Shown: positions 1-38,751, counted from the first letter of the stretch. The stretch: 64,000 nt of DNA from a virus (IMGVR_UViG_3300002092_001784:202154-266153); one strand, 5' to 3'. Translations and numbers: made by a program. The notes: a model not told the origin generated them from the letters alone.

Positions 1-3000
1 AATGTGAAGCAATTATTGGGAATGGCAAACGCTGTATTTTCTGAAAACGATACCCAAATATCATTTCAATTAAAACTAATTCCATATAATGATAGTGGTG
101 TTGATGATGCCGTAGGGAAAGAAGAAGTTATTACTATTAAGTTTATTAAAGGTAGGGATACAATACCACGCCCAGTAGCTATTACAAGAATTGCCGAAGC
201 ATTTCAATTACAATTTGATACGATAGATGTAGATGATGAGGGTTCTAAATATCTTACACATCTTTTACATTTGGGGGATGGTAATAACAAAATAATTACA
301 ACGTGGACTGGTAGTAATGATTCTGTTATATTAAAACTATATGAACCACTACCAACTTCAGTTGATGTAAATCAATTAGTTTGGGTTTCCAAAATACAAT
401 CAAATACTACAATAGAATCGGTCACTCTTATCGGAGCTACGGCTTCGTATTGTGAACCGTTAAGAGGACCTAATTTTACAGTTGAACCGGATAATAGTAT
501 TGGATTTAAGGTATTTGATGATTTAATAGCAAGTGGATCGGCAACATCTACCGATTTATTAAATAAATATTCTGAAAAAGTAGGAATAGACACTAAACGA
601 TTTAATATACAATTTGTAAGTGGTTCTCAATATGTATTTGAAAACTTTGTAAATTTTAGTTCGGCTGAAGAACGTGTTAATAATTTTTATTACAAACTTC
701 AACTGATTGAAAATTATCAGAAACAATATAATTCATCAACGGGTAGTAGTTCAGCTATTTCTGGAATAAATGCACAAAGTGCATATGATTCATTAAATGG
801 TGTAATGCAAGGGTTTGATGCTTTTGAGGATTTCTTATACACAGATACTACTTCGGATTTATCATATCCTAAAGTTGATGGTAATCCAATACCATCCACA
901 ACGGATGATGCTCTTAATTGGTTGGATAACATAACAGCAACTGCTTCATATTTTGATAAGTACAATCCAAATTATTTGGCTAATAACTATCCTCAGTATG
1001 TAAAAGAAAACGTAGATCATGCTGATTTTGTGGTGTTTAATGATATGATCGGACAGCATTTTGATATAATATGGATGTATATCAATGCTATGAACAAAAA
1101 TAAACAAGTTGAAGCAATTCAATCCAAAGGTGGTATCATAAATGATATGGTATTCTATATGTTAGAATCTATGGGTTGGGGAGCTAAAATGGCTTATGAT
1201 TCGGAATATCTATGGGAACATGCATTTGGATTGTATAGAGATGGTACTCAAAAATATGTATCACCGTTGGTTCAAGCAAATGAACAGGTGTGGAGACGTA
1301 TTTTGTATAATTTACCATATCTTCTAAAACATAAAGGTACGGCAAGGGCATTAAAAGCAGCTATGGCGTGTTATGGTGTTCCACAATCATTACTCACTAT
1401 AATGGAATTTGGAGGACCTCAAAATCCTACTGGAGATGCTGTAACTCAATTCACATTTGAGGACAGGACTTGTGCAATATCGTTGGATACTAATTCAAGT
1501 ATAATTATTCCTTGGAAGCAAGTACCATCCACATCGGCGTACCCAGAATGTATTGAAATAAGAATAAAACCAAGCATTGTACAAAATTGCACTTTAATTA
1601 ATGTAAATCAATTTACACTTCAATTAATTCAAATAGTTGGAAATCTTTCAAAATTAAGATTGATATTCGATTCTATGATAATCGATAGCGATTCATTTAA
1701 TTTATCTACTGCGGATTATTCACAAATAGTAATAAATAGACATCAAGATGTTGGATTAAATTCTTTCTATGAAGTTATATTCCAAACAACAGATGGTACT
1801 AAAATTATAAATCCAATTACAGTGACACATGAACATTTGACATCTGTGTGGGAAGGTAGTGGGGTTGTGACTATTGGTGGTGATAATTATGTTGGGGTTA
1901 TTGATGAATTTAGACTATGGAAAGTACCATTACAAACTTCTAAATTAGATAATCATACATTATTTCCGGATGCTATTAATGGAAATTCATATACATCATC
2001 TACTTCTGATTTACTATTTAGATTGGATTTTGAATATCCAAAAAACAGAATAATAGACCCATATATTAAAAATGTGGCTATTAACACAGAATATGGTGCA
2101 ACTTATGCTACGGCAAGCAATTTTTGGTCTGCTCCAGCATATCCATATCAATATATTCCTTATGAAAGGGTTGTAACTGCAAATGTACCATCCGTTGGAT
2201 TTGGATATGCAAATAAAATACGATTTGAAACTCAAGAATTGATTGGTGATCTTTCATATAAAGTAAGGGCTACTAAAAAATCTTACGATAGGGGCCCGAT
2301 AGATTCATCTCGATTAGGATTTTTCCTATCCCCAACAAAGGAGTTAAATTTGGATATACTGAAAGCATTTGGTGAGTTTAATATAGATGATTATATTGGA
2401 GACCCATCGGATGAATATACTGATAAATATGCACAGTTAGATGAGTTAAGACATTACTACTTTGAAAGACTGGACAGAAATATTAATGAATACATTCAGT
2501 TGGTTAGGAATATTGATAAATCATTATATGATGTTCTTGAAGATTTATCACCGGCAAGAGCTAAAATATCCAAAGGATTACTAATTGAACCGCATTACTT
2601 AGAAAGAAATAAAACCAAATGGAAAAAAGTAGAATCGGACAAAGGTGATTATACCGGTACAGTAGATGCGGCAGAACATACTGATATTGCTTCAACTTAT
2701 AATACTGAAGATGCATTATTAGATGCAAGTGAAGTAGCAACATTTGATTTTCAAATGGATAACTATGATGGTATTATCACTTCAAATGATGTAATTCAGT
2801 TGGATGGTGACCAATCTGCACATGATGCCAATTTACAATATTTTGCTACTGATTTTATGGAAGTTACCGTTCCTACCTACGATAGTTCGATAACAGTCCC
2901 ATCTGGCGCATCATTAGTTGGTGAATTTGGATCATTGCCACTCACTGCAGTTGGTATGGAGCCGGACTCTCTTGCTAATGCCGGATATGGTTTATACGCA

Positions 3001-3471
3001 AACAATGGAGTTGGGAAGGTGACAACGATTGATAGTGCCGGAAATAAAATTTGGAGTAGACAAAACATATATTTGGTAACAGAACAATACCAAATAAATG
3101 TACCAACTCAAGTTTCTGGCAGTCCGGTGTTAGGTGCATTGCCGGGTGAGCAAGTAGTATATGCGGACAGACCTGTTACTAAAACAAAACATAAAGTGGT
3201 TACTTTACCTTGGGATATTAGTAACAGTATAACTTTAGGAAACGGTATAGTAGATGTACAAACTCTAAATGGTTACTTCCCTACACATCACAAATATACT
3301 AATAATTTATCGGAAGGATTGAAACGTTCATTGTATAAAGGTTCAGTTCAATCAGCAACTACAACTCCTGATGGATTGCCTGCGGTTGAAATCTTTACAA
3401 CTAATCCTAATATATTGAAGGTAGCTAATACAGGTAGAAGTTCGGGCGAACCAATTCTCGTAGTTTCATAA
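1..3471 (+). CDS. Large virion structural protein, probably baseplate wedge (5'-truncated by the window)
   Basis: The frame is open from base 1. LYNLPYLLKHKGT resembles baseplate wedge/sheath-initiator motifs, a LamG-like GVIDEFRLW segment is present, and it sits among tail genes. Confidence 0.55.
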   Translation, partial: NVKQLLGMANAVFSENDTQISFQLKLIPYNDSGVDDAVGKEEVITIKFIKGRDTIPRPVAITRIAEAFQLQFDTIDVDDEGSKYLTHLLHLGDGNNKIITTWTGSNDSVILKLYEPLPTSVDVNQLVWVSKIQSNTTIESVTLIGATASYCEPLRGPNFTVEPDNSIGFKVFDDLIASGSATSTDLLNKYSEKVGIDTKRFNIQFVSGSQYVFENFVNFSSAEERVNNFYYKLQLIENYQKQYNSSTGSSSAISGINAQSAYDSLNGVMQGFDAFEDFLYTDTTSDLSYPKVDGNPIPSTTDDALNWLDNITATASYFDKYNPNYLANNYPQYVKENVDHADFVVFNDMIGQHFDIIWMYINAMNKNKQVEAIQSKGGIINDMVFYMLESMGWGAKMAYDSEYLWEHAFGLYRDGTQKYVSPLVQANEQVWRRILYNLPYLLKHKGTARALKAAMACYGVPQSLLTIMEFGGPQNPTGDAVTQFTFEDRTCAISLDTNSSIIIPWKQVPSTSAYPECIEIRIKPSIVQNCTLINVNQFTLQLIQIVGNLSKLRLIFDSMIIDSDSFNLSTADYSQIVINRHQDVGLNSFYEVIFQTTDGTKIINPITVTHEHLTSVWEGSGVVTIGGDNYVGVIDEFRLWKVPLQTSKLDNHTLFPDAINGNSYTSSTSDLLFRLDFEYPKNRIIDPYIKNVAINTEYGATYATASNFWSAPAYPYQYIPYERVVTANVPSVGFGYANKIRFETQELIGDLSYKVRATKKSYDRGPIDSSRLGFFLSPTKELNLDILKAFGEFNIDDYIGDPSDEYTDKYAQLDELRHYYFERLDRNINEYIQLVRNIDKSLYDVLEDLSPARAKISKGLLIEPHYLERNKTKWKKVESDKGDYTGTVDAAEHTDIASTYNTEDALLDASEVATFDFQMDNYDGIITSNDVIQLDGDQSAHDANLQYFATDFMEVTVPTYDSSITVPSGASLVGEFGSLPLTAVGMEPDSLANAGYGLYANNGVGKVTTIDSAGNKIWSRQNIYLVTEQYQINVPTQVSGSPVLGALPGEQVVYADRPVTKTKHKVVTLPWDISNSITLGNGIVDVQTLNGYFPTHHKYTNNLSEGLKRSLYKGSVQSATTTPDGLPAVEIFTTNPNILKVANTGRSSGEPILVVS

Positions 3472-3523: not shown

Positions 3524-4237
3524 ATGAAATATATTTTTACATATAAGACTATTAACTTGGTAAATAATAAAGTTTATATAGGGGTTCATTCAACTACAAA
3601 TTTGAATGATGGATATTTAGGGAGTGGATATAAATTACAAGATGCTATAAAAAAATATGGTAAACAATATTTTGAAATGAATCCTATACAATTTTTTAAT
3701 TCAATTGAAGAAGCTTACCAACACGAAGCTGAATTGGTTAATGAAAACTGGGTGCAATCAAACGGTAATTACAATACTGCTTTGGGTGGATTTGGCGGAT
3801 TTTATCATATAGATACGAAAGGTGAAAATAATCCAAATTATGGAAAACGATGGAATGATGAATGGAAAACAGCACAAAGAGAACGAATGAGAGAATACTA
3901 CAAAAACAACCCTGCTCCAAGAAAAGGAGCAACCCATTCGGATGAATCCAAAGAAAAAATGAGTAAATCAAAAACAGAATTTTATAAAGAGCACCCAAGT
4001 CCAATGAAAGGTACGATTATGTCAGTTGAAACAAAAAGAAAAATAAGTCAATCAAGAAAAGGATGTGGTGTTAAACCAGTCATACAATATACTAAAGAAA
4101 ATGAATTTATAAAAAGATGGGATAGTATTATCAGTGCTGCAACTTTTCTAAAAATACATTCGGCATCAATTAGTATATGTGTAAACGGAAAGAGTAAAAC
4201 ATCTGGCGGGTATATTTGGAAATATGCTGACAGTTAA
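3524..4237 (+). CDS. Free-standing GIY-YIG homing endonuclease (Seg-like, NUMOD3 plus C-terminal NUMOD1)
   Basis: FTYKTINLVNNKVYIG...YLGSG catalytic domain, HSDESKEKMSKS/MSVETKRKISQS NUMOD3 repeats, and a C-terminal KPVIQY...SGGYIWKY domain. Confidence 0.9.
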   Translation: MKYIFTYKTINLVNNKVYIGVHSTTNLNDGYLGSGYKLQDAIKKYGKQYFEMNPIQFFNSIEEAYQHEAELVNENWVQSNGNYNTALGGFGGFYHIDTKGENNPNYGKRWNDEWKTAQRERMREYYKNNPAPRKGATHSDESKEKMSKSKTEFYKEHPSPMKGTIMSVETKRKISQSRKGCGVKPVIQYTKENEFIKRWDSIISAATFLKIHSASISICVNGKSKTSGGYIWKYADS

Positions 4238-4939: not shown

Positions 4940-6148
4940 ATGGCACTCATAACAGACCCATCAATAACATCACAAATATCAGCAGCAGCTAATTCTGGGG
5001 TAATTGATACCGCTCAAGTAATAGCAATTCTAAATTCTGTTCTACCTGCGGGTCAGCAGATTTCTACGGCAACCGCTGGTACTACAACGGGAATATATAA
5101 ACAGTTTGGGGATTTTGATATGGTTAATGCCAAAGTTGAGGTTGTAACAACTGGACTTTGGACAAACGGATCGGGATCATTAACTACATTCTTTACATCT
5201 TCCGCACAAACTGCATCAGTTAGTGGGCAGTATTATACAAATGTATATAATGCAAACCCAACAACCGATACAACTGCCGAAGTTCAATATGCAGTTGCAT
5301 ATGGACATGCATACGGAAGTGGTTCAGTATCTTTACAAGTTAGTGATAACGCATTGTTAGCAACAAAAAGTACATACGCACAGTATAGATCAATGTTGTT
5401 ACAACCAAATGATAACCTTTTCTCTTTTCAAAACGCATCAAATACTACAACTGATTCAAATGATATTTATGTAATTAACATTGCACGTTCAAGATACAAA
5501 GAATCAATGGATGCTGGTAACTGGGAATTATTATTGAGTGGTTCTAATGGTGTATTCCATTTCATTGATGATAGTGGTAAGAAATTTAGTGATACTGCTG
5601 GAAACCCCGGTAATGTGTTCAATGTAGTTAGTGGAGGGCTTAACTTAGGAACTCAATTAGATGCTACTATAAAAACAGCAACAGCAACAAACGGATTGGG
5701 ATATGGATTATTCTATCCTGATAGAGGAATAATTGTACTAAATCCTGCAGCAATAGGTAATACCGTTGGTAAAGTATTTATTGGTAATTCACTTGTGGAA
5801 TTGAGTGGTAGTTTAAGTACTGCGGCAGAACAATACAATCATATGAGATTGCACGCAGCAATTAGTGGAGCTGGTGATTTTGAGGCAAGAAGTACTGAAA
5901 ATGTATCTACTCAACATTTCTTTGTAAGAGCAACTAATAGAGAATTTAATTACTCAAACAATCCTACTTATGTGGATGGTAATGGTAATTTTATTGAACC
6001 ATCATTCCAAACAGACCCTAAAACATATATTACAACTGTTGGATTACTGAATGATTCAAATGAATTAATTGCGGTAGCAAAGACATCGCAACCAATTCCT
6101 AAATCATTTGATACAGAAACACTTATCAGGGTCAAATTATCGTTTTGA
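4940..6148 (+). CDS. Virion structural protein (baseplate/tail-collar-like C-terminus)
   Basis: C-terminal YITTVGLLNDSNELIAVAK motif typical of tail-collar/baseplate proteins, paralogous to the end of 7122..8069. Confidence 0.55.
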   Translation: MALITDPSITSQISAAANSGVIDTAQVIAILNSVLPAGQQISTATAGTTTGIYKQFGDFDMVNAKVEVVTTGLWTNGSGSLTTFFTSSAQTASVSGQYYTNVYNANPTTDTTAEVQYAVAYGHAYGSGSVSLQVSDNALLATKSTYAQYRSMLLQPNDNLFSFQNASNTTTDSNDIYVINIARSRYKESMDAGNWELLLSGSNGVFHFIDDSGKKFSDTAGNPGNVFNVVSGGLNLGTQLDATIKTATATNGLGYGLFYPDRGIIVLNPAAIGNTVGKVFIGNSLVELSGSLSTAAEQYNHMRLHAAISGAGDFEARSTENVSTQHFFVRATNREFNYSNNPTYVDGNGNFIEPSFQTDPKTYITTVGLLNDSNELIAVAKTSQPIPKSFDTETLIRVKLSF

Positions 6149-6229: not shown

Positions 6230-7093
6230 ATGGAAAAAATTAAATGCCAATTGTGCCAAAACGAATTTAATCCCAAACAAATGGGTATGCATGTTACTCG
6301 TACTCATAAAATCACATACGATGAATATGCTACTATGTATTGGGAAACTTTACCAAATTATTCACCATGCAAAGTGTGTGGAACTATTTGTACAGGAACC
6401 TATTGTTCAATGGACTGCCAAAAAACCGGAGTGAGTTCTAAACTAAAAGGTATAAAACAACCACCAAGAACGAAAGAACATTGTGAAAAAATAAGTAAGG
6501 CGGCAAAGGAACGGCTTAAAGATAAAACTAAACATCCTTGGTTGGGTAGAAACCATTCCGATGAAACAATTAAAAAAATATCCAAATCGTGTAAAGAAAA
6601 ATATAAAGATGCAACTCATCAACCAAGATTAGGAAAACGGTTTACCGATGAATCCAAACAAAAGATAAGCAAATCTCAATCCAAATTTTACGAAACACAC
6701 GATTCTCCATTCAAGGGTAAAACACATACCCCGGAATCTATTCGTAAAATATTTGAAAATAAGCCAATGAACAAATTGGAAAAGCGGGTAGCCGATTGGT
6801 TCGATGCACGTGGCATTGGATACACATTTCAGTTTTTTATAAATTCTGATGGTATTTGTAAATCATATGATTTCAAATTAAAAGGTTCTAAAACTATTGT
6901 CGAAATTAACGGAGATTATTGGCACGGTGGTTCTGGTATTGAGAAGCATGTGTTTAATGTAGATGTTAATATTGAAAATGATAAATTGAAAAAGAAAATG
7001 GCAGAAGATTTGGGCTATCACGTTATTACGATTTGGGAACACGATATAAAGAATGATATAACAATATTAGAAAGTACATTAAATTTAACTTAA
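6230..7093 (+). CDS. Free-standing endonuclease with Zn-finger, NUMOD3 repeats and Vsr/DUF559-like (EDxHD-type) nuclease domain
   Basis: CQLC...H...H and CKVC...C...C fingers, HSDETIKKISKS/FTDESKQKISKS repeats, and YDF...VEINGDYWH...GYHVITIWEHD. Confidence 0.8.
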   Translation: MEKIKCQLCQNEFNPKQMGMHVTRTHKITYDEYATMYWETLPNYSPCKVCGTICTGTYCSMDCQKTGVSSKLKGIKQPPRTKEHCEKISKAAKERLKDKTKHPWLGRNHSDETIKKISKSCKEKYKDATHQPRLGKRFTDESKQKISKSQSKFYETHDSPFKGKTHTPESIRKIFENKPMNKLEKRVADWFDARGIGYTFQFFINSDGICKSYDFKLKGSKTIVEINGDYWHGGSGIEKHVFNVDVNIENDKLKKKMAEDLGYHVITIWEHDIKNDITILESTLNLT

Positions 7094-8326: not shown

Positions 8327-8785
8327 ATGAGTTGGATTTTTATGGATAAATTGGTTACAGAGGATAGCACCCCAGCGGGTGCTATTGGTTTTGTCTATAA
8401 GATTGTCCATATACCAACCGGAAAGTTTTACATAGGTAAGAAGAATTTAGTATCTACCCGAAGATTAAAAATTGGAAAACGTGAATTACAATCCATAAAA
8501 GAATCAAGAAAGGCAGATGGTATACTTGGTAGATTACCATCCAAAAAAACAGTAAAAACAGATAGTGATTGGGAAACTTATTATTCATCAAATGAGGAAT
8601 TAATTCAGATGGTGAAAGATGGTAAGGCAGATGAATTACGCAGAGAAATTATTCAATTTTGTTTTTCTAAAAAAGCATTATCCTATTACGAATTATATTG
8701 GCAATTCAAATACGATGTTCTTATCGTTGATGATTGCTATAACAATAACATCGGTGGAACTTACTACCGAAAAGATTTAATTTAA
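8327..8785 (+). CDS. Compact GIY-YIG superfamily nuclease
   Basis: GFVYKIVHIPTGKFYIGKK...DWETYYSS...LRREI...YNNNI, with no NUMOD DNA-binding repeats. Confidence 0.75.
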   Translation: MSWIFMDKLVTEDSTPAGAIGFVYKIVHIPTGKFYIGKKNLVSTRRLKIGKRELQSIKESRKADGILGRLPSKKTVKTDSDWETYYSSNEELIQMVKDGKADELRREIIQFCFSKKALSYYELYWQFKYDVLIVDDCYNNNIGGTYYRKDLI

Positions 8786-27532: not shown

Positions 27533-27533
27533 T

Positions 27534-27941: not shown

Positions 27942-28659
27942 ATCATGTACGGATGTATTTGTGTATGGTAGTTCAATCCGAAAATCACCTGAAGGTAAAG
28001 GACCAGTATTAGTTCCAACTTCAGAAGTTTATTATTCGGGTATGGCGGCAAATACCTATAATAATCTATTGGCATTGGGAATGGATGCTGCATTATTTTC
28101 TCAAAATTCAGAAATTATAAAAACAAGATATATTGATGATGCGAGTGGTGAATTGTATCTACGAATAGATGAATATGATTCGACAAATCCAATTCAAATG
28201 GAATATTTGCCTGATTTGTCCCAATATGATGCCATCGTTATTTCTGATTACAATAAAGGATTTTTAACAGAACAAAATATACAAACAATCGCATCTAAAC
28301 ACCCATTGGTAATATTGGATACAAAAAAACAACTAGGTGCTTGGTGTAAAGATGTTAAATTCATTAAATTGAATAGAACGGAAAGTGAAAAAAACTTACA
28401 AACTATTTTAAGTTATAATTGGTTGCGTGAGAAGGTGATAAGTACATTGGATAAGGATGGGGCATCATATATGAATAGATTGGTTACCGCAAAACCAGTA
28501 GATGTAGTAGATATATCGGGCGCAGGAGATACTTTTGTTGCTGGGTTTATTAAAGAATACTTAGAATCCAACGATGTATTCAAATCAATCGAATTTGCTA
28601 ATGAATGTGCGGCAATAGTAATTGCTCAAAGAGGTATTACTACCATACAAAAGGATTAA
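27913..28659 (+). CDS. rfaE1: HldE/RfaE domain I-like heptose-7-phosphate kinase (PfkB family)
   Basis: ILVIGESCTDVFVYG...R.SPE, GMAAN, IVISDYNKG, KLNRTE, DISGAGDTF. Confidence 0.85.
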   Translation: MEKKILVIGESCTDVFVYGSSIRKSPEGKGPVLVPTSEVYYSGMAANTYNNLLALGMDAALFSQNSEIIKTRYIDDASGELYLRIDEYDSTNPIQMEYLPDLSQYDAIVISDYNKGFLTEQNIQTIASKHPLVILDTKKQLGAWCKDVKFIKLNRTESEKNLQTILSYNWLREKVISTLDKDGASYMNRLVTAKPVDVVDISGAGDTFVAGFIKEYLESNDVFKSIEFANECAAIVIAQRGITTIQKD

Positions 28660-28705: not shown

Positions 28706-31700
28706 ATGAATGAGCTTGTAAAACATTTAGTTGAAACTATAATTTCGGAAGAAACTGAAAAAAATTATATTGTTGTATATTCCGGTAGATTTCAACCATT
28801 TCACAAAGGACATTATGCTACTTACTTAAATCTTACCAAAAAATTTGGAAAAGATAAAGTTTACATTGCTACGTCTAATGTAACTGATAATAAAAAATCA
28901 CCTTTTAATTTTGCAGAAAAAAAGGTTATAATGACTAGAATGTTCGATATTCCATCGGACAAAATAGTACAGATTAGAAACCCATATGCACCTACTGAAA
29001 TATTAAATAAATATGATCCAGAAAAGACAGGTGTTATTTTTGTTGTTGGTGAAAAGGATACTGCTAGACTTGGTGGTAAATATTTCACACCATATAAGGG
29101 TACGGTTGATGCTGGATATAAAGATAAAGGATATGTATATGCTTCACCTGCACAACCAAACGCAATAAGTGGTACTGATGTTCGTAATTGGTTAGGTAAC
29201 GGTACGGATGAAGAAAAGAGAGCCAATTTTCTGAAAGCATATCCAAAATTCGATGAGAAGATTTTCAAATTAATAACACTCAAGTTGAAAAAATTGGGTG
29301 AATCTATACGTGAGGAAATCAAAATCAATGTAAATGTTGGCGATACGGTGTTAATGGGAAAATTCAAAAACCATCCGGTTAAAGTTAAATCAATCGGTAA
29401 GGATGAACATGGTATGCCAACCATTAATGGAAAGAAAGCCGCTACATTCAGAATAGGTAATCATATAAATATATTTGATACTGCGGTCAATGAAGATGGT
29501 GCGGGCGCCGGAGGTGCTGCCGGGTTTGGAGGACAAGGTGGTGGAGCTGGTGTTGGGTTATCTTTACCCGGTGGATATATAAACGGAGCACCAAATCCAA
29601 AGGATGTTAAAAAGACAAGAAAGAAATTAAAACAAAAAGATGATGATATTTACACACCAGTAAATGAAGCATCTCTTGCTGGATATTATGCTGATAGCGG
29701 AGAACCAAATCCTAATTATGTAGCTGATGGACAAGAACGTATTTTAGATAAAGGAAAGCCAGAACCTTGGTTTACACAAGGAGGGTATACTCAATTACAT
29801 ATTCCAAAAGGTGATTGGATGAGAGGTAAGGCATTAAAAGATCGTGAAGATGATATGCAACTTCGTAAGGTATACTACAAAGTTCAAAATATTAAACAAA
29901 GTGCATTAAATCCGGCAGATGATCCACATACTACCGAAGATTGGCAAGTTGTTAATAGGGATACTCCGTTGGAAAAACCAAAAAGATTTTGGGAATTACC
30001 AAAAAATCAAAAGCCTGAAATAATAGATGATAAAGAAATTACTGAAATATTCAATCAGACCCTAAAAGAATTGGGATTGTTGGAATTTAGTGGTGGGCAC
30101 TCGTTTCCACATGATGGTAACGCAACAACAGGTCGTCAATGGAACAAATCATGGGAAGAATATGATAATCCGGATGCATATATTAAACACCTAATGGGAT
30201 GGTCTACTAAAGATGCCATACCAAGCGATAGGTTTAAGGATATTAAACATCAAGAAATTCCATTAAATCAATCCGGACAGGAAACAGGAATATACGATCA
30301 TACATTGGATTACAATATACTTGCTCCAAATGAATTTTTAGAAAAATCTGAAATTCAAAAGGGTGTGGTGAACGATGCTTCAGATGAAATGCATCGTCCT
30401 TTACATAATGGAATGGAATGGCCATCTATGGATGATATTAAAGCCAAACGAAAAAAAATAAAATCAAAACTTCGAAGTCCTAAAAATTCGTATTTGAGTG
30501 TGGATGCTCCAATCGTAGGTGAAACCGATTCCGAAGCATTAGATGAAATGGCAATGCCAGATATGAAATCGGTAGAAAAATACGCAGATCAACAGTTGAG
30601 TCCGGAAGATGTTGAATTAGGAAAGCAAACTGACCATTTTTTCCAACGATTAAATGATCCACGAAACGGAAAACCAATTTCGACAGCAGAAATGATAGGT
30701 TTCTTTAAGAGGTTGGGTAACAACAAAGAGAAATTTTTAGATTTTGTAAAGAAATATAGTGAATTTGTTGTAAAGGATAATAGAACAAATATCAATATCG
30801 CCTTTATGAAGCAGGCTAATAAACTTATTGCCAAAACGGTGATGAGAAAGCCTGATTTTAAGACAAGCAATCCAATATTTGTAGATGAAGCTGAACAATT
30901 GGATGAATTGGCATGGTCTACTAGTGCATTTAATTTTGTGCAAGATGTTGATGTACCATTTACACCAAAAGTTGCAAAAGCACTCTATGGTGATATGATA
31001 GTTACTACATTTCATGTTAGCGATTCTGATAATATTGATAATATTAAAAAGTTAATCGGTAAGAAAAAATCAGTGTCAACATTTACATATATGGCGCGAA
31101 CCGCTTTGCAGAATATGGATGGTATACAAACCGACGGTGGTATAATATATCAATTAGTTGGTAAGGTTTTAATAGATTCTGCGAATGATATTATGAGTAG
31201 ACCTGATGAACAGGGTAGACGGTGGGTAATGGGACGAGATTTGAATCCAGTTACCTATAAATTGTATCAGAAATTTTATAAGTATATGGGTTCTAAGAAA
31301 GAACTTCAAAAATACGATGAAAAATATGAATCAACTTATGATGCAGACACTGACTCTAGTTCATTAACCAATAAAGAAAAATCTGAATGGATAGCAGCAT
31401 ACATTCGATTGGCTGAAGAGTGGATTATTCAGCACGCCGATGAATTTAGGGATACTATGCGTAAGATGCCAATGGATGAATATTGGAATGAAGTAGTGGT
31501 ATACGATATACACATTAAAGATGTATTGTGGACAAACTCTGGGCAGTTTGGGACGGCTGACGAAGATGAATTGAATGAAATAAGTCATAAATTAAATACA
31601 ATCGCAACCGGAACTGTTTATTACACCGATGAACCTTCAGATGCATTGAAATTTGTAAAATCAAGAGGTGGACAATATGCCAAAGCAAATATCGGATTAC

Positions 31701-32173
31701 CATATAAAGGTGTGCCGGTTGGCAGTACAAATATTAATAGTATATTAAGTGCCGACGCATTTAACATGAAAGAATCGGTTCAACCAATTAGTATCAACGA
31801 AGCAACCGAAGCATTGAAGATGCACATACCATCGGATATTGAGCAAATATATAAAATGTTTCAAAAAAATGGTAAGAAATTGTATATTGTTGGTGGTGCT
31901 GTTAGGGATGCTATTTTGGGAAAGACACCAAAAGATTTTGATTTAGCAACCGATGCTACTCCTGATGAAGTTTTAGCTATGGCTAAAAAGGAAGGTATGC
32001 ATTCGACAGAAGTTGGAAAAGCATTTGGTGTGGTGATTGTTAATGGTAATGAAATAGCAACTTTCAGGAAAGATGTGAAATTAAAAGATAATGCAGATGA
32101 TTTTATAAAATATTTACAATATATTAATATACCGAATACTCGTATATCTACTTTCAAAAAAGAATTGAATTAG
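28706..32173 (+). CDS. Multidomain polyprotein A: NMNAT/NadM-like nucleotidyltransferase, small unknown modules, ART-like module, N-terminal half of class II CCA-adding enzyme
   Basis: SGRFQPFHKGH...SPF...ISGTDVR, then LYIVGGAVRD...KDFDLATD...EIATFRKD near the C-terminus. Modules are bounded by VNE/LDE/INE linkers. Confidence 0.8.
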   Translation: MNELVKHLVETIISEETEKNYIVVYSGRFQPFHKGHYATYLNLTKKFGKDKVYIATSNVTDNKKSPFNFAEKKVIMTRMFDIPSDKIVQIRNPYAPTEILNKYDPEKTGVIFVVGEKDTARLGGKYFTPYKGTVDAGYKDKGYVYASPAQPNAISGTDVRNWLGNGTDEEKRANFLKAYPKFDEKIFKLITLKLKKLGESIREEIKINVNVGDTVLMGKFKNHPVKVKSIGKDEHGMPTINGKKAATFRIGNHINIFDTAVNEDGAGAGGAAGFGGQGGGAGVGLSLPGGYINGAPNPKDVKKTRKKLKQKDDDIYTPVNEASLAGYYADSGEPNPNYVADGQERILDKGKPEPWFTQGGYTQLHIPKGDWMRGKALKDREDDMQLRKVYYKVQNIKQSALNPADDPHTTEDWQVVNRDTPLEKPKRFWELPKNQKPEIIDDKEITEIFNQTLKELGLLEFSGGHSFPHDGNATTGRQWNKSWEEYDNPDAYIKHLMGWSTKDAIPSDRFKDIKHQEIPLNQSGQETGIYDHTLDYNILAPNEFLEKSEIQKGVVNDASDEMHRPLHNGMEWPSMDDIKAKRKKIKSKLRSPKNSYLSVDAPIVGETDSEALDEMAMPDMKSVEKYADQQLSPEDVELGKQTDHFFQRLNDPRNGKPISTAEMIGFFKRLGNNKEKFLDFVKKYSEFVVKDNRTNINIAFMKQANKLIAKTVMRKPDFKTSNPIFVDEAEQLDELAWSTSAFNFVQDVDVPFTPKVAKALYGDMIVTTFHVSDSDNIDNIKKLIGKKKSVSTFTYMARTALQNMDGIQTDGGIIYQLVGKVLIDSANDIMSRPDEQGRRWVMGRDLNPVTYKLYQKFYKYMGSKKELQKYDEKYESTYDADTDSSSLTNKEKSEWIAAYIRLAEEWIIQHADEFRDTMRKMPMDEYWNEVVVYDIHIKDVLWTNSGQFGTADEDELNEISHKLNTIATGTVYYTDEPSDALKFVKSRGGQYAKANIGLPYKGVPVGSTNINSILSADAFNMKESVQPISINEATEALKMHIPSDIEQIYKMFQKNGKKLYIVGGAVRDAILGKTPKDFDLATDATPDEVLAMAKKEGMHSTEVGKAFGVVIVNGNEIATFRKDVKLKDNADDFIKYLQYINIPNTRISTFKKELN

Positions 32174-32211
32174 CCACATTTCGTTTATTTTATTAATTAA
32201 TATTTATATGT

Positions 32212-32964
32212 ATGATTATATACAAAGTAACAAATAAAATAAATAAAAAGATATATATTGGACAAACTATACGTTCAATGACGGAACGTAAATATGGACA
32301 TATAAAATCTGTTAGAATGGGAAGTACTTCGTTGTTTCATAATTCTATTAGAAAATATGGAATTGATAATTTTACATGGGAAGTAATAGACACGGCACAT
32401 TGTATAGAAAAGTTAAATGAATTAGAAATTAGTTATATTGCAAAATTTAATTGTTTTATTGATTTTCAAAATAGTAATGGGTATAATATGAATACTGGTG
32501 GTGGTAATTATATAACATCACATTTAACTAAACAAAAACTTAGTATTATAAATACCGGTAAAATTTTATCAACCGAAACTAAAGAGAAAATCAGTAAAGG
32601 TAACCTTGGAAAATCAGTAACCGAATCATTTCGAAAAACTATGAGTGAGTTAAATAAAGGTAGAGTTGCTAGTTTGGAAACTAGAGAAAAAATAAGTAAA
32701 TCTTTGCAAGGCAAGCCGGGTAGAAATACCGGTAATACGCATACTCAAGAAACTAAAGAAAAAATATCGAATACAAAAAAAGGAACGGTTTCTTGGAATG
32801 CATCGCCAGTTATACAACTAACGATGGACGGCGAATTTGTTAGAGAATGGCGAAGCGCAGCATTTGCCGCATCCCAATTAAAGTTAAGTCAAGGCAATAT
32901 AACATCATGTATACATGGTAAACGAAACAGTACTGGTAACTACAAATGGATTAAAAAAATATGA
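32212..32964 (+). CDS. GIY-YIG homing endonuclease inserted into the CCA-enzyme coding region
   Basis: IIYKVTNKINKKIYIGQT...GYN, several NUMOD3 repeats and C-terminal NUMOD1. The stop overlaps the next start (ATGA). Confidence 0.92.
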   Translation: MIIYKVTNKINKKIYIGQTIRSMTERKYGHIKSVRMGSTSLFHNSIRKYGIDNFTWEVIDTAHCIEKLNELEISYIAKFNCFIDFQNSNGYNMNTGGGNYITSHLTKQKLSIINTGKILSTETKEKISKGNLGKSVTESFRKTMSELNKGRVASLETREKISKSLQGKPGRNTGNTHTQETKEKISNTKKGTVSWNASPVIQLTMDGEFVREWRSAAFAASQLKLSQGNITSCIHGKRNSTGNYKWIKKI

Positions 32965-35900
32965 AAAATTGGAAAGAAATTGCTAAGCAGTATTTTGCGG
33001 ATGAATATATTGATTTTCAAAAATTAATAAGTGGTACTGGTGCAAATATAAACGTTAAACGGGGGGCTCAGATTGTAGATTATACGGATATTGAGGGTGA
33101 TGTCAAACGACGTGACTTGACAATTAATGCGTTATTTTATGATATTGATAGAGGTGAAATCGTAGATTTAGTTGGTGGTATAGCAGATTTACATAAAAAG
33201 AAAATACGAACCGTTGGTAACGCAACTGAAAGATTTGATGAAGACCCTCTTCGGAAATTAAGAGCGTTGAGATTTTACAGTCAACTGGGTGGTAATATGG
33301 ATGTTGAAACTCTTAAAGCATTAAAAGATAACCCATCATTGGAAGGTGTAAGTGCGGAAAGGATTCGTGACGAATTTATAAAAACACTTAATAAAGCAAA
33401 ATCCGAAAAGAGATACCTTCAAATGCTGCAAGCTCTTAAATTCTTAAATCAAATTCTACCCGATTTGGTGGTGGCTAAACCGTATGTAGATGAAAATGAT
33501 TACATTGTATTACTTGCGTATTTGCTTAGAGAAAATGATACTCAAACTCTAATACGTCAACTAAATAAGTTGAAGTATACAAACGATGAATGTAAAGATA
33601 TAACTTTTTTGGTATCGCTACAATCATTCACCGCAGATAAAATTGCCAATTACAAAAAAAACCAATCTGTTACTACATTAAGTGATAATCAAATATTGGA
33701 ATTTGGGAAATTGATCGGAAAGAACTTCAATAAATTTGTGAAATTTCAATTAGCTATAAAAGGTTCAGATGTACCTGCTGGATTAAAAGGTAAAGATATT
33801 GGAAATTGGATGGGTGATGCTGAATCAAAACGATTTTTGAATGAAGCAGTAGTGATTAAAAATTTCAAAGATATATTCAGTAAATTACCAACTGAAGTTC
33901 AGAAAAAAATATATTCACTAAAAGATGCACCGCAAAACCCAAAACATCATCCGGAAGGTAATACATTAAAGCACACTATTATGGTGGTGAATCGTGCATT
34001 GAAGTATTTTCCGAATGATATTGATTTAATAATAGCAGCAATATTTCACGATATAGGTAAAGCTGATACGATGAGTATTCATCCAAAGACCGGTGGTATA
34101 ACTCATTATGGGCATGAAGATGTATCTACCGAATGGGTTAACCGATATAGTAATTGGATTGAATCTATGGGTGGAAACGCTGAAGATGTACGATATATTG
34201 TACAGAACCATATGAAAATGCATAATTTTGATATAATGCGATTGGCAAAACAACGTGCATTACAATCGCATCCTGCATTTGATAAATTATATGGATTTTC
34301 CCAAAAAATGGATAAGGGTGGATTCGGTGAGGGAATACATGAGGGAGTAAGTGAGGGTATAAATAATCCAAAAATTACATTTCTAATCGGACCTCCTGCT
34401 TCTGGAAAAAGTACTTGGGTTAGTAATAACTCAAAAGGTGCTATTATCATTTCACGTGACGATATTGTAGACCGTTTAAGAAAACCATTGGGATTATCGT
34501 ATGGTGAGGCATTTAGTAATGATGAGTTACAAAATAAAGTTAATTCTGAGCTACAATCCCATATTACACAGACACTTACTTCTGGCAAGGATATAGTTGT
34601 GGATATGACTAATATGACCAAAAAAGGTAGACATAAAATATTATCAAGAGTACCAAAAAACTATACAAAAAATGCGGTAGTGTTTAGTGTTGGTCGTGAT
34701 GAATTACTTAAACGATTAAAATCAAGGGAAGAAGAAACTGGGAAAACTGTACCTGTTTCGGTTGTAGACCAAATGATTAGGAATTTTCAGAAGCCAGATA
34801 CCGGAGAATTTGATAACATTACAAATGAGGGAATAACTGAGGGTGTAATCAATGAATTGGCTTGGCAAGGCAAAGCAATGGATCGGATACAGGAATTGGG
34901 ATTCCCATTGACACCTAAAATTGGTAAGGAAGTATATGGTGATACAGTTGTTACTACATTTCATGTAAGCGATGTAAACCATATTGATGATATTAAAAAA
35001 ATAATCGGTAAAAAGAAATCCATATCAACATTCAAATATATGAATGATATGATGCTGAAAAATATGGATGGCATTAGAACCGTCGGTGGTATTATTTATG
35101 AATTGCGAGGAAATATAGTAGCAGATTCAACCAAAGATATAGGTAGTGCCCCAGATGAACAAGGACGTAGATGGGTGATGCTATATTCATCGGCACCGGG
35201 TATATATAAATTTACATATGGGTTCAAACAGAAATTAAAATCCAATCCAATAACAGGTCCTATTTTTGAGTATTTTTGGAAAAATGGTATAATGCCGGAA
35301 ATGGATAATACTAATAAAGCAAAATTCATAGCAGCATATATTTCTACGGCAGAAAAATACATAATTGAAAATCAAGATGATTGGGTACAACTATTGCTTT
35401 CACCGCAAACTAATAATGCTTGGAATGAAGTATTGGTAAATAATATACAAGTTAATGATATAATTTGGACAAATAAATTTTATCAATATAGTAAAGAACA
35501 ATTAGCTGAATATTCTAAAAAATTAGAAGTAATTGCAAAGGGTAAAGTATATTTTACAATGGATTCAAAAGATACCATTGAATTTGTTAAATCACGCGGT
35601 GGCTTTACTGGTAATATTAATGCCACACCAAAAGAATATATGGGAGCGGCAGTTGGAAGTGAAGATGCAATGAAATTTATGAAAGAAGAAGTGCTGAATG
35701 AATTGGCTTGGGAGGCTGGTGTTAATAAATTTATAACACAAATGAATTTTCCGTTTACACCAAAAGTTGGGAAAGCATTATATGGTGACGCGGTTGCTAC
35801 TACATTTCATATAACAGATGCTGACAACTTTTCTAAAATAAAATCTCTTATCGGCAAAAAGAAATCCATTTCTTCGTTTACCTTTATGGGTGATGATATG

Positions 35901-37844
35901 TTAGATGATATAAGGGGAATACAGACCGTAGGTGGTATTTTATTTCAATTAGAAGCAAAAATAGTACTAGATTCCGCGGTAGATGCGATGAGTCAACCGG
36001 ATACAGAAGGTAGACGTTGGTCAATCGAACCAACAACATTGAGAAAACAATTCAAACAGGAAATATATGATGATGCCAAGTTTTATAAACGATTTAATTT
36101 ATATTGGGCTGGCGGAAAGGCAATGACTCAAAGTGAAAAGGGTAAGTTTGTAGCGGATTATATCACACGAGCTGAAAAGTTTTTAATTAAAAATAAAAAT
36201 AAAGTTATAAAAGAGTTAAGATCGCATGGGTTGGTGGGTGATTGGAATGAAGTTATTGTATATGATATAAAGGTAAAGGATGTATTATGGACAAATACTT
36301 CCAATAATTATTATACCGATAGAATACGACATAGTGATGCTGAAATAAAGCGTATTGCTAGTGAACTAAAACAAATAGCAACTGGTACTGTATATTTTAC
36401 TGAAAATCCTAAAGATGCTATTGAATTTGTGAAAAGTAGAGGTGGTTTTGTTGGTGGCAGTGGCTGGGACTCTACTGGTGAATATAAAGGAGCTGCTGTT
36501 GGCAGTACAAATCCAAAAATTATTATGAAAGAAGGAAATATGAAAACTATAATGGAAGGCTTGAGTAAAAAAGATTTACTAATCGAAGAACTGATGGTTC
36601 AAAGACAATACGGATTACTTGCTAATAACCAAAAGGTATTACTACAATGTGGTGGGGCCTACGGACATATGCATCACCCATTTGATACCGAAATCAATCT
36701 TACATTTGGGGATTTGAAAGATATAGTAAAGAAAGCGTTAACTGGTGAATTGGAACTTACTCGTGAAAAAACAGATGGTCAGGCTCTCGCAATTAGTTGG
36801 GTAGACGGTAGATTGGTTGCTGCTCGTAATAAATCACATCTTAAAAACAAAGGAAAGGATGCAATGACTTTACAAGCCGTTGCTGATAAATTTGGTGGGC
36901 GTGGTGGATTATCCGATGCATACAATTTTGCAATGCAAGACCTTTCAAATGCAATTAGTGCATTATCAGAAGCACAAAGACAACTTATATTCAAAGATGG
37001 GACATGTTTTATGAATTTGGAAGTAATATATCCAACTTCGGTAAATGTAATACCATACAATCAGGCACTATTGGTATTTCATGGAACATTTGAATACGAC
37101 GAGAGTGGAAACATAATTGGTGAAAATCAACCCGCAGCTCGTGTATTGGCAGGTATGATTAAGCAGGTAAACCAGAATGTTCAAACGAAATACAAAATAC
37201 AAGGACCACCGGTTATTCAATTACCAAAATCGGCAGATTTGACAGACCTTCAATCAAAATATTTGGCAATGGTTTCAAAATTACAATCAGAATTTGGATT
37301 ATCAGATTCAGATGGTGTTGCTGATTATCATCAGGCATGGTGGAGGTATTACATCGATGTTAACGCACATTCATTGCCGGAAGAACAAAAGAAAGCACTA
37401 ACAAAAAGATGGGCATTTTACGATAAATCATTTAGGTTGAAGGATATTCAAGATGATACAGTTAGAGCTTGGGCTGAAAAAATAGATAAGCAAGATCAAG
37501 CAAAAATTGCGAAAGATAATCTAATGAGGTTTGAACAGATATTTTTAGGAGTGGGTTCAGATGTACTTTCATTTATGAAATCAGTTCTTACCGCAAATCC
37601 TGATGAAGCAAAACGACAGATGGTTAGTAAATTAGATCAAACGATTAAAGATGTAAAAAACAGTGGTGATCCGAAAAAGATAGAAAAACTAAAATTAGAA
37701 TTACAGAGATTACAATCGGTAGGTGGGTTTGATAAAATTGTACCAATCGAAGGTATTGTTTTTGTATATAAAGGTAACGTAATGAAGCTAACAGGCGCTT
37801 TTGCTGCATGCAATCAAATTAACGGTATCTTTTTTTCAAAATAG
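32961..37844 (+). CDS. Multidomain polyprotein B: C-terminal part of CCA enzyme, HD domain, P-loop PNK-like kinase, two ART-like modules, RNA-ligase-like domain
   Basis: DVKRRDLTINA and FDEDPLRKLRALRF, HHPEG...FHDIGK...HYGHE, GPPASGKST...VVDMTN, EKTDG...NLEVI...EGIVF...MKL. Confidence 0.82.
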   Translation: MKNWKEIAKQYFADEYIDFQKLISGTGANINVKRGAQIVDYTDIEGDVKRRDLTINALFYDIDRGEIVDLVGGIADLHKKKIRTVGNATERFDEDPLRKLRALRFYSQLGGNMDVETLKALKDNPSLEGVSAERIRDEFIKTLNKAKSEKRYLQMLQALKFLNQILPDLVVAKPYVDENDYIVLLAYLLRENDTQTLIRQLNKLKYTNDECKDITFLVSLQSFTADKIANYKKNQSVTTLSDNQILEFGKLIGKNFNKFVKFQLAIKGSDVPAGLKGKDIGNWMGDAESKRFLNEAVVIKNFKDIFSKLPTEVQKKIYSLKDAPQNPKHHPEGNTLKHTIMVVNRALKYFPNDIDLIIAAIFHDIGKADTMSIHPKTGGITHYGHEDVSTEWVNRYSNWIESMGGNAEDVRYIVQNHMKMHNFDIMRLAKQRALQSHPAFDKLYGFSQKMDKGGFGEGIHEGVSEGINNPKITFLIGPPASGKSTWVSNNSKGAIIISRDDIVDRLRKPLGLSYGEAFSNDELQNKVNSELQSHITQTLTSGKDIVVDMTNMTKKGRHKILSRVPKNYTKNAVVFSVGRDELLKRLKSREEETGKTVPVSVVDQMIRNFQKPDTGEFDNITNEGITEGVINELAWQGKAMDRIQELGFPLTPKIGKEVYGDTVVTTFHVSDVNHIDDIKKIIGKKKSISTFKYMNDMMLKNMDGIRTVGGIIYELRGNIVADSTKDIGSAPDEQGRRWVMLYSSAPGIYKFTYGFKQKLKSNPITGPIFEYFWKNGIMPEMDNTNKAKFIAAYISTAEKYIIENQDDWVQLLLSPQTNNAWNEVLVNNIQVNDIIWTNKFYQYSKEQLAEYSKKLEVIAKGKVYFTMDSKDTIEFVKSRGGFTGNINATPKEYMGAAVGSEDAMKFMKEEVLNELAWEAGVNKFITQMNFPFTPKVGKALYGDAVATTFHITDADNFSKIKSLIGKKKSISSFTFMGDDMLDDIRGIQTVGGILFQLEAKIVLDSAVDAMSQPDTEGRRWSIEPTTLRKQFKQEIYDDAKFYKRFNLYWAGGKAMTQSEKGKFVADYITRAEKFLIKNKNKVIKELRSHGLVGDWNEVIVYDIKVKDVLWTNTSNNYYTDRIRHSDAEIKRIASELKQIATGTVYFTENPKDAIEFVKSRGGFVGGSGWDSTGEYKGAAVGSTNPKIIMKEGNMKTIMEGLSKKDLLIEELMVQRQYGLLANNQKVLLQCGGAYGHMHHPFDTEINLTFGDLKDIVKKALTGELELTREKTDGQALAISWVDGRLVAARNKSHLKNKGKDAMTLQAVADKFGGRGGLSDAYNFAMQDLSNAISALSEAQRQLIFKDGTCFMNLEVIYPTSVNVIPYNQALLVFHGTFEYDESGNIIGENQPAARVLAGMIKQVNQNVQTKYKIQGPPVIQLPKSADLTDLQSKYLAMVSKLQSEFGLSDSDGVADYHQAWWRYYIDVNAHSLPEEQKKALTKRWAFYDKSFRLKDIQDDTVRAWAEKIDKQDQAKIAKDNLMRFEQIFLGVGSDVLSFMKSVLTANPDEAKRQMVSKLDQTIKDVKNSGDPKKIEKLKLELQRLQSVGGFDKIVPIEGIVFVYKGNVMKLTGAFAACNQINGIFFSK

Positions 37845-37908: not shown

Positions 37909-38751
37909 ATGATTATATATAAAGCTACAAACAAAGTAAGTGGTAAGTGCTATATTGGGCAAACTGTTAAGACTTTAGAAAATAGAATATATCATCACAT
38001 TTCTAATTCTAAATCTGCAATACATAAAAGTATTTTTCACAATGCTTTGAAATCTTATGGTTCTGATAATTTTGAATGGGAAGTTATAGCAACGGCCGAT
38101 ACAAAAGAACAACTTAATGAATTGGAAATATACTATATAACAAAATATGATAGTATAAATACCGGTTATAATATGGTTGAAGGTGGGACTGGTGGTTACA
38201 ACCAATTTGCGGTAGATGCAAACAAATTAAAAAGAGCAGGTAAAACTTGGAATGAAATATATTCAGATACGGGGTTGGCTGTTATGAAAAATGCATTATC
38301 TACTTTTACTAAAGCTGGGGTTGAATATATTAAAAATTTACCAAAAGAACAAAGAATTATTAATGCAAAACGAGCTAACAAAGCCAGAACTGATATGGGA
38401 TATAAACATAGTGATGCAACAAAAGATAAAATGAGTAAAGCTCAAAAAGGTATAACCAATACAGACCGATATGGTGAAGATGCTGCCAGCGAACTAAAAA
38501 AGAAAATATCCGAAGCAACTAAAGAAGCTATGAAAAAAGTGGACAGGGATTTAATCGGAAGAAAATCAGTTGAAGCTCGTACACCATTTTGGAATAAAAA
38601 ACACGAAAATGATAGAAATGTGATATTAGAGATGACAAAACTGGGTAGTAAAATTAAAGATATAATGTTTGCTATAAATGTATCACCACCGACTTATTAT
38701 AAACGAGTTAATGAATTGAAAAATATGGGATACTCCAATTTGTTTGAATAA
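37909..38751 (+). CDS. Free-standing GIY-YIG homing endonuclease
   Basis: IIYKATNKVSGKCYIGQT...GYN, NUMOD3 HSDATKDKMSKA, C-terminal HTH-like segment. Confidence 0.88.
   Translation: MIIYKATNKVSGKCYIGQTVKTLENRIYHHISNSKSAIHKSIFHNALKSYGSDNFEWEVIATADTKEQLNELEIYYITKYDSINTGYNMVEGGTGGYNQFAVDANKLKRAGKTWNEIYSDTGLAVMKNALSTFTKAGVEYIKNLPKEQRIINAKRANKARTDMGYKHSDATKDKMSKAQKGITNTDRYGEDAASELKKKISEATKEAMKKVDRDLIGRKSVEARTPFWNKKHENDRNVILEMTKLGSKIKDIMFAINVSPPTYYKRVNELKNMGYSNLFE

Follow-up and report, generated by a model that had tools for sequence, protein, structure and literature searches.

A phage CCA-adding enzyme split by a recurrent homing endonuclease cassette and probably reassembled from two polypeptides

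Introduction

A T4-like phage most probably makes its CCA-adding enzyme as two polypeptides that reassemble non-covalently, the gene being split by a cassette of tail, spacer, homing endonuclease and leader; we give this reading a probability of roughly 0.78. The gene lies on 64,000 nucleotides of DNA (IMGVR_UViG_3300002092_001784:202154-266153), called the window from here on, with positions counted from its first letter. The window forms the last 64 kb of a 266,153-bp IMG/VR virus record that was assembled from freshwater metagenomes and is complete according to CheckV; a T4-type portal (E 2.7e-67) and a large terminase identify the phage as T4-like.

The mechanism that we propose starts from a cassette of about 1 kb (32075/8-33077) that sits right after the RKD motif, at the N-terminal base of the flexible loop of the enzyme. 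It contributes a tail of 32 residues, a conserved promoter-like spacer, a free-standing GIY-YIG gene and a leader of 24 residues. Neither RNA nor protein would be spliced. Instead, each half would be translated on its own. For the C-terminal one (C-half), the start would be the ATG that overlaps the stop of the endonuclease, with coupling or a promoter within the cassette as possible means. The β-sheet of the head domain would then re-form non-covalently, aided by amphipathic helices of tail and leader that pack together, and the endonuclease would spread the unit by cutting the conserved GAT-ATT-GGT-AAA-GGT-AGA-CG region of empty alleles.

Layout of the split gene

A preliminary description of the window had proposed a CCA gene split in its flexible-loop region by a free-standing GIY-YIG endonuclease, and Pfam bears this out by placing the two parts of one profile on separate open reading frames (ORFs). 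Residues 1059-1130 of ORF A (28706..32173, 1155 residues) match positions 1-76 of the 126 positions of PolyA_pol (PF01743, E 3.3e-13), and residues 37-83 of ORF B (32961..37844, 1627 residues) match positions 79-126 (E 9.9e-13). The piece on ORF B is followed by PolyA_pol_RNAbd (PF12627), then HD, then an AAA_33 kinase. A search of the whole genome with PF01743 returned the same two pieces and nothing else. Profile positions 76 and 79 flank the break in the head domain, which directly follows the BxA motif RKD. ORF A, the endonuclease gene and ORF B occupy three different reading frames, and both giant ORFs are open. The catalytic motifs are intact and keep their order (motif A, BxA, loop, motif B, EDxxR) but are distributed over two polypeptides. 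The parts are as follows.

31790..32074, plus strand: N-terminal half (N-half), piece of the head domain of a class II CCA-adding enzyme, making up the final ~95 core residues of ORF A
31892-31909, plus strand: motif A GGAVRD, on the N-half
31934-31942, plus strand: DFD (the DxD carboxylates), on the N-half
32066-32074, plus strand: BxA motif RKD, on the N-half
32075..32173, plus strand: tail of the N-half, 32 residues (VKLKDN...KKELN; V1124-N1155) plus stop, not in uninterrupted genes
32174..32211, plus strand: spacer of 38 nt from the ORF A stop to the endonuclease ATG, holding a promoter-like element
32212..32964, plus strand: GIY-YIG/NUMOD3/I-HmuI-like homing endonuclease (Pfam), 250 residues, free-standing
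32961..33032, plus strand: leader of the C-half, 24 residues, MKNWKEIAKQYFADEYIDFQKLIS, homologous in 10 split loci
33033..33077, plus strand: modified flexible loop on the C-half, GTGANINVKRGAQIV, in place of GKGRRPSSV
33078..33845, plus strand: rest of the CCA enzyme, comprising the head from DYTDIEGD, neck and body (PF01743 79-126 and PF12627)
33108-33116, plus strand: motif B RRD, on the C-half
33237-33254, plus strand: DEDPLR (motif D, EDxxR), on the C-half

The N-half matches phrog_2244, a tRNA nucleotidyltransferase, and shows 66-76% identity to uninterrupted relatives, with homology stopping at RKD[VI]; the core of the C-half matches CCA-adding enzymes of the PDB at E ~1e-17. A poly(A)-polymerase signature between motif A and the loop serves as a discriminator (PMC2910056), and this signature, [LIV][LIV]G[RK][RK]Fx[LIV]h[HQL][LIV], is absent from the corresponding segment, LATDATPDEVLAMAKKEGMHSTEVGKAFGVVIVNGNEIATF. 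Of the added parts that the preliminary description had measured, the spacer of 38 nt (32174-32211) and the tail of 32 residues stand as given, while its leader of 38 residues is really one of 24 followed by the enzyme's own modified loop.

Uninterrupted relatives and empty sites

Comparison with uninterrupted homologues, as suggested in the preliminary description, shows that none of the four parts of the cassette is present in them. A scan of viral contigs found 59 relatives with 56-65% identity, and in all 57 that cover the site the gene runs through it in one frame, EIATFRKD-IGKGRRPSSV-DYTDIEGDVKRRD, with no interruption. Because every one of these related loci is continuous there, the split is not a chance feature. 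When the window is aligned to the uninterrupted genes, homology ends after RKD-V (32077) and restarts at D-Y-T-D (33078).

Empty sites are also found at close range. A 363-nt contig from a lake metagenome is 97.6% identical to 33078-33247 and carries ATTGGAAAAGGTAGACGGCCGGATTCGGTT upstream, which reads IGKGRRPDSV; on this match it is an empty site in a close relative. Similarly, the uninterrupted gene P0126 (457 residues) is 92% identical to the N-half of the split locus L123 up to RKD and 88% identical to its C-half from the loop Arg on, and in this pair the cassette of L123 replaces GKG only. Empty alleles of the L053 and P0126 types have the site sequence around GATATTGGTAAAGGTAGACG.

Among cultured phages, tblastn with leader and head gave uninterrupted genes only, and megablast of cultured-phage records with 28706-37844 gave no match. 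An apparent leader match in Phaeobacter phage MD18 was rejected, as it falls within a continuous CCA gene. Profile scans of viral and metagenome contigs with the leader alone (a query of 39 residues) gave no match either; the query is probably too short, and the result is not evidence of rarity.

A recurrent mobile cassette

The nearest homologues of the endonuclease (42-54% identity) all lie between CCA halves, in loci from independent assemblies (L123, L124, L125-127 and L128). A search with the stand-alone C-half of L123 found further C-halves with the same leader, in which the arrangement between the halves differs. The same site is taken by another GIY-YIG nuclease in L132, by a GIY-YIG nuclease of the LEM-3 type together with a small ORF in L131, L134 and L135/136, and by no nuclease in L129. 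The LEM-3-type nucleases are 58-64% identical to the window endonuclease in their C-terminal DNA-binding part and differ from it in the catalytic domain. L129 (75-2461) consists of a tailed N-half, a 62-nt spacer and a leadered C-half preceded by a GGAGG ribosome-binding site. Judged by this layout it is a relic, in which the split outlives the selfish gene.

Phylogeny points in the same direction. The three full-length split genes do not come together in a tree built from the CCA core, L123 being sister to the uninterrupted L052/L053 (support 100/96) and the window being placed elsewhere. Forced monophyly of the three, a group fixed before the tree was seen, changes the log-likelihood by -41 units (approximately unbiased test, p=0.00018). 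The pattern of presence and absence is, in these comparisons, as expected of homing or of precise loss by recombination. Taken at the level of the loci compared, the unit of tail, endonuclease and leader is a recurrent mobile cassette that is polymorphic among close relatives. The preliminary description had missed this recurrence and mobility, as well as the position of both halves inside giant ORFs of 1155 and 1627 residues.

A different interruption is seen in L060 (2519-8511; also in L058). There a second site of the CCA gene, following EDPLRMLRFLRF, is interrupted by another endonuclease-like ORF (5135..6025), which has NUMOD-like repeats and a C-terminal VIECDGDYWH motif resembling Vsr/DUF559, and essentially no tails are added. 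The downstream ORF of L060 contains an apparent intein right after the Lys of the ligase motif (REK/CVYGD...).

Tail and leader as conserved peptides

Homologous tails and leaders were aligned in 10 split loci. The tail follows the pattern D[VI]xLKDNxxDF[IV]K[YF]LxY...I..FK..., the leader the pattern MxxWKxIAKxYFxxE...F..L[IL]xGxG, and both are better conserved than the endonuclease itself. They occur in split loci only and are gained, kept and lost together. Differences at codon positions 1, 2 and 3 number 104, 63 and 217 in the leader and 125, 72 and 175 in the tail, and invariant residues are encoded by different synonymous codons (Arg34 by CGG, CGT, AGA, AGG and CGT). The ratio of non-synonymous to synonymous change (dN/dS, calculated by the Nei-Gojobori method, NG86) for tail and leader together is 0.12-0.38 in 10 of 10 pairs of the five closest loci, at a proportion of synonymous differences (pS) of 0.48-0.73, near saturation. 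For the tail alone it is mostly 0.25-0.43, and for the leader alone 0.06-0.26 where computable. By this pattern of substitution, tail and leader are translated sequence under purifying selection.

These data bear directly on whether the insert is a group I (or II) intron that carries the endonuclease ORF, with tail and leader as open intron RNA and one mRNA restored by splicing. We consider this very improbable, even though the parts of the insert outside the ORF (~210-250 nt) are about as long as a small group I core, a 5' site after U (GAUGU/G) and a 3' site after G (AAACG/UU) can be drawn by eye, and several sources label homologous endonucleases 'group I intron endonuclease'. The Infernal search that the preliminary description had called for agrees with its view that no intron is visible: run with Rfam over 31500-33600 at a limit of E<=10, cmscan returned two chance matches, rox2 and ceN109, and no intron of group I or II. 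RF00028 had no match over the whole 266-kb genome at E<=10, and an intron search in L058/L060 returned nothing relevant, with no group I or II model matching there. A core interrupted by a 750-nt ORF can escape a covariance model, and the flanks were therefore examined for a positive coding signal. They evolve as protein, as the excess of third-position differences, the synonymous changes at invariant residues and the dN/dS values indicate, and this coding signature is, on the substitutions counted, a stronger argument against an intron than the missing RF00028 match. Furthermore, L129 retains tail and leader as the ends of its ORFs, 62 nt apart, and no joining of the flanks would give back the conserved IGKGRRPSSV.

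Splicing at the protein level would require that tail and leader be the halves of a split intein and that the enzyme be rejoined by protein trans-splicing, as in a 'fractured gene'. The order of half, free-standing endonuclease and half is the one found in fractured genes, and a degenerate-intein origin of the tails of Aeh1 NrdA, a phage enzyme also made in two pieces, was raised by Crona et al. (PMC3045599). Nevertheless, this explanation is hardly credible here. Tail and leader together have ~56 residues, far under a minimal intein; the tail starts with V/I/E/G-x, without Cys or Ser, the leader ends with S-G-x-G, without His-Asn, and there is no Cys, Ser or Thr at +1. The conserved columns of both peptides are helix positions with hydrophobic or charged residues, and neither ORF A nor ORF B has a Hint or intein match in Pfam.

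The insertion might also have killed the gene, leaving the halves as a young pseudogene that is open by chance or as part of larger ORFs. The empty site in a near-identical relative would fit a possibly recent insertion in this lineage, and the loop is altered in the clade of the window. Against decay, 10 diverged loci share this split and have homologous tails, and their GGAVRD/DxD, RRD and EDPLR motifs are intact; synonymous sites are near saturation between split loci while the proteins are conserved, and the split outlasts the loss of the nuclease in L129. The halves stand alone as small genes of 128-145 and 295-303 residues in L131, L132, L134 and L135, so that their frames are not kept open by neighbouring domains. 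A pseudogene is accordingly improbable.

Two further candidates were rejected: translational bypass over 1 kb on the size of the insert, and programmed DNA excision, there being no flanking direct repeat beyond G-T-x-A-A-A.

Assembly of the two halves

Structure prediction suggests how a two-piece enzyme could hold together. Folded jointly, the N-half piece P0001 (127 residues) and residues 1-300 of ORF B reached an ipSAE of 0.70 (runs 0.71, 0.70 and 0.70), against 0.01 for the best of three controls; of 78 solved complexes, 51 attained such a score, as did 2 of 108 mismatched pairs. At least 92% of the contacts are common to the runs, and the partners have a predicted local distance difference test score (pLDDT) of at least 82. 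Two interfaces are predicted. One is the re-formed sheet of the head domain, between residues 30-43 of the N-half and 55-70 of the C-half. The other places residues 98-126 of the tail against residues 2-23 of the leader, the expected errors being 1.0-1.4 Å, and has no solved counterpart; its low-error pairs join leader positions 4, 8, 12, 15 and 19 to tail positions 102, 105, 108, 109 and 112. The preliminary description had supposed that the halves come together through added helices; the models support this rather than show it, alongside the conservation of the peptides in 10 split loci.

Several observations weigh against the two-piece reading. The fold score expresses how confident the model itself is, and half of the predicted interface may be memory of solved intact enzymes, since CCA enzymes have been solved as single chains. 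Some tail pairs have a dN/dS of ~1 (L123/L128 and L124/L128), and tail and leader are both net basic (isoelectric points 8.3-10.0), unlike the oppositely charged tails of Aeh1 NrdA. The N-half carries ~1030 upstream residues unless the giant ORF is processed, and the altered loop of the window's clade could change activity. On the side of expression, no ribosome-binding site is obvious before ORF B, and the endonuclease is without the AAAGGA Shine-Dalgarno-like stretch found in L123 and L125. Finally, deletion of the Aeh1 tails still gave the a/b heterodimer, the tails being needed for higher-order assembly (PMC3045599), so that the tails here may serve a role other than joining the halves.

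This last point leads to a variant in which the halves join via the head-domain sheet alone, and tail and leader act in oligomerisation, stability, targeting or regulation of endonuclease expression. Besides the Aeh1 heterodimer, the L060 enzyme, split elsewhere with essentially no added tails, would be in line with it. Since tail and leader are predicted to pack together with low expected errors and always come, stay and go as a pair, we regard the variant as rather unlikely and keep to reassembly aided by the added helices.

Flexible loop and predicted activity

The flexible loop lies between the BxA motif and motif B; it is needed for A addition and is deleted in CC-adding enzymes (PMC2910056). 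In the five split loci that are more distant, the leader runs straight into the native loop G(K)GRRPDSV, which places the cut between RKD[IV] and GKG and the whole loop on the C-half. The clade of the window has a derived loop, G[KT]G-xN[IV]N[VI]K-RGAxxV, whose core N[IV]N[VI]KRGA does not vary among the five closest loci while its K, R and G codons change synonymously. Measured from BxA to RRD on the C-half, the spacing is no shorter than in uninterrupted relatives, and the loop is present. Arg34 is aligned with the first residue, an Arg, of RHAEVEF in the loop of human TRNT1 and is, by our reading, probably the loop arginine modelled in a salt bridge by Hoffmeier et al.

The CC-only enzyme envisaged in the preliminary description is not supported, as the loop is not deleted but lies whole on the C-half, in native form in the distant split loci. 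Since that half keeps the entire loop, conserved Arg included, we favour an enzyme that would add full CCA. Our certainty on this is low, because the cut removes the N-terminal covalent anchor of the loop and the loop of this clade is altered.

Halves that assemble with changed specificity (CC-only or A-only), the cut at the base of the loop disabling the switch from CTP to ATP, are an unlikely outcome in our estimate. The loop is a lever that needs its context, and point mutations or a Gly10 replacement restrict such enzymes to CC (PMC2910056); the window's clade has KRGA and a six-residue insertion instead of RRP. Against this, the loop is whole, it is native in five of the 10 split loci, and the Arg that aligns with the loop Arg of the human enzyme shows no variation. 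The genome contains no second CCA-family gene that could supply a missing activity, and no second enzyme to complete a partial one, since PF01743 matches only the two pieces.

Endonuclease and expression of the cassette

The endonuclease (32212..32964) scores 53.6 bits with NUMOD3 (E 2e-14) and 32.9 bits with I-HmuI_NUMOD-like, both over the cut-offs. Its GIY-YIG score of 21.8 bits is slightly below the cut-off of 22.6; the IIY...YIG, R, E and N motifs are visible, and the homologues P0004-P0009 carry PF01541. The endonuclease stop overlaps the ATG of ORF B (ATGA), and among the five closest loci the C-half begins at an ATG placed 4-8 nt before the endonuclease ORF ends. Owing to this overlap, expression of the enzyme may be linked to the selfish gene's translation.

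The spacer holds a conserved, AT-rich element of ~40 nt (32176-32211 in the window: CATTTCG ... ATATTTATAT). Its general pattern is CATTYCG, about 17 nt, ATATTTATA, that is, C-A-T-T-Y-C-G ... A-T-A-T-T-T-A-T-A. The same element is found 5' of the endonuclease in L123 (3304-3359), L125, L128, L131, L134 and L135, and 5' of the C-half in the endonuclease-less L129 (1509-1570). From this distribution it may be a cassette-borne phage promoter; a scan with the sigma-70 consensus did not pick it.

Genomic setting and the giant ORFs

Downstream of the CCA enzyme, ORF B continues with further domains.

33846..37844, plus strand: remainder of ORF B, with HD, AAA_33 P-loop kinase, two copies of a ~285-residue module and a C-terminal KxDG domain

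The KxDG motif of this last domain, read from the sequence, is REKTDG at 36762-36779, and the domain appears ligase-like. Altogether, ORF A and ORF B combine cytidylyltransferase-like, CCA, HD and P-loop kinase domains with modules that we could not assign, repeats and the KxDG ligase-like end. Relatives have these modules as separate genes or fused in differing combinations (open frames of 383 to 1916 residues). The linkers of the giant ORFs contain many [LIV]xE motifs, for example IHEGVSEG and ITEGVINEL.

The ~285-residue module is present in three diverged copies (37-42% identity, BLASTP), at 30878-31765 (ORF A residues 725-1020), 34833-35675 (ORF B residues 625-905) and 35673-36560 (ORF B residues 905-1200). 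In some relatives it is a stand-alone gene of ~320 residues just 5' of the CCA gene (e.g. L014 4703-5671). It has no match in Pfam, PHROG or Atlas, and Foldseek against the PDB gave nothing at E<=0.001. Its AF2 model has a pLDDT of 78, and the best VIA-align match, a weak one, is to yeast Tpt1 (7yw4, Z 5.3, root-mean-square deviation 4.0, 104 residues), followed lower down by DarT (Z 3.6) and the ADP-ribosyltransferase CteC (Z 3.4). Tpt1 is a tRNA 2'-phosphotransferase. The model thus gives a faint hint that the module may have an ADP-ribosyltransferase/Tpt1-like fold.

Upstream of ORF A, a 3477-residue ORF at 13383-23816 ends with a Peptidase_S74 intramolecular chaperone domain of the tail-fibre type. 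It is followed at 24204-28659 by genes for a glycosyltransferase, a methyltransferase, a heptosyltransferase, a cytidylyltransferase-like protein and a PfkB kinase. The window contains five homing-endonuclease-like genes.

3524..4237: GIY-YIG/NUMOD3 paralogue of the endonuclease at 32212..32964
6230..7093: homing-endonuclease-like gene
8327..8785: SegE type
32212..32964: the endonuclease between the CCA halves
37909..38751: GIY-YIG/NUMOD3 paralogue of the endonuclease at 32212..32964

One of these five has NUMOD3 only. Two of the additional homing-endonuclease-like genes stand directly behind giant ORFs (1..3471 and 32961..37844).

Significance and comparison with known systems

A literature search found no paper on a split phage tRNA nucleotidyltransferase or CCA enzyme; a paper on Certrevirus CB7 mentions an unspliced endonuclease insert in a different gene. 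The comparative data offer evidence that endonuclease cassettes carrying their own clasps are a recurrent strategy. We see an even chance that the unit is a self-contained 'cut-and-clasp' mobile cassette, which would home into the loop codons of CCA genes and bring its own clasp peptides, so that the enzyme still works. If so, it would represent a third general way, beside introns and inteins, of accommodating a harmless homing endonuclease in a conserved gene. Once fixed, the cassette would outlive its nuclease, whose domain is swapped in L131, L134 and L135 and which is lost in L129, and a natural lineage of two-piece class II CCA-adding enzymes would have arisen. Since the chain is cut exactly between the primer-positioning BxA motif and the loop for the change from CTP to ATP, such enzymes would provide a natural test of the loop's covalent anchoring. 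For annotation it matters that halves of this kind are easily mis-called pseudogenes or intron-split genes.

The closest known parallel is the NrdA-a/mobE/NrdA-b arrangement of Aeh1. The splitting of Aeh1 nrdA by mobE was reportedly the subject of work by Friedrich et al. in 2007. Crona et al. 2011 found the NrdA tails to be essential for activity and predicted that such tails are perhaps general (PMC3045599). Rescue of a fragmented enzyme by peptides that came with a homing-endonuclease insertion is a rare remedy, known from experiment so far for this one phage ribonucleotide reductase only. The preliminary description had drawn this analogy, and it is apt (PMC3045599). Both cases concern a T4-like phage with a free-standing homing endonuclease in a conserved catalytic region, and both halves have terminal tails that continuous homologues do not have. 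In Aeh1 neither RNA nor protein is spliced, as would hold here on our reading, and the endonuclease overlaps the start of the downstream half, mobE that of nrdA-b (PMC3045599). The systems differ in that the enzyme here is a CCA-adding enzyme and not a ribonucleotide reductase, that the endonuclease is of the GIY-YIG and not the HNH family, and that the tails are both basic and amphipathic whereas those of Aeh1 are oppositely charged. The solution of Aeh1 would appear in a second, unrelated enzyme family and with a different endonuclease family. Unlike Aeh1, a single phage, the tails here occur in at least 10 lineages, with the nuclease exchanged or lost and the cassette polymorphic, while their function is deduced. 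This adds comparative evidence that the Aeh1 case lacks: tails that are under purifying selection over deep divergence, travel with the endonuclease and outlast it.

Other known systems share parts of the arrangement. As in T4 gp39/mobA/gp60, for which tail-like extensions too are noted in PMC3045599, a mob-type endonuclease cassette divides an enzyme of the T4 family. T4 gene 60 has a translational bypass of 50 nt, whereas here there is no sign of bypass and the insert is 1 kb. Fractured genes (Dassa et al. 2009, PMC2677866) have the same order of half, endonuclease and half; theirs are ligating split-intein domains, whereas the peptides here are too short and without intein nucleophiles. Finally, the bacterial pairs of CC-adding and A-adding enzymes (Neuenfeldt et al. 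2008, as cited in PMC2910056) similarly involve two class II polypeptides with the loop at issue. They are two complete paralogues that divide the activities between them, whereas here one catalytic domain is cut in two.

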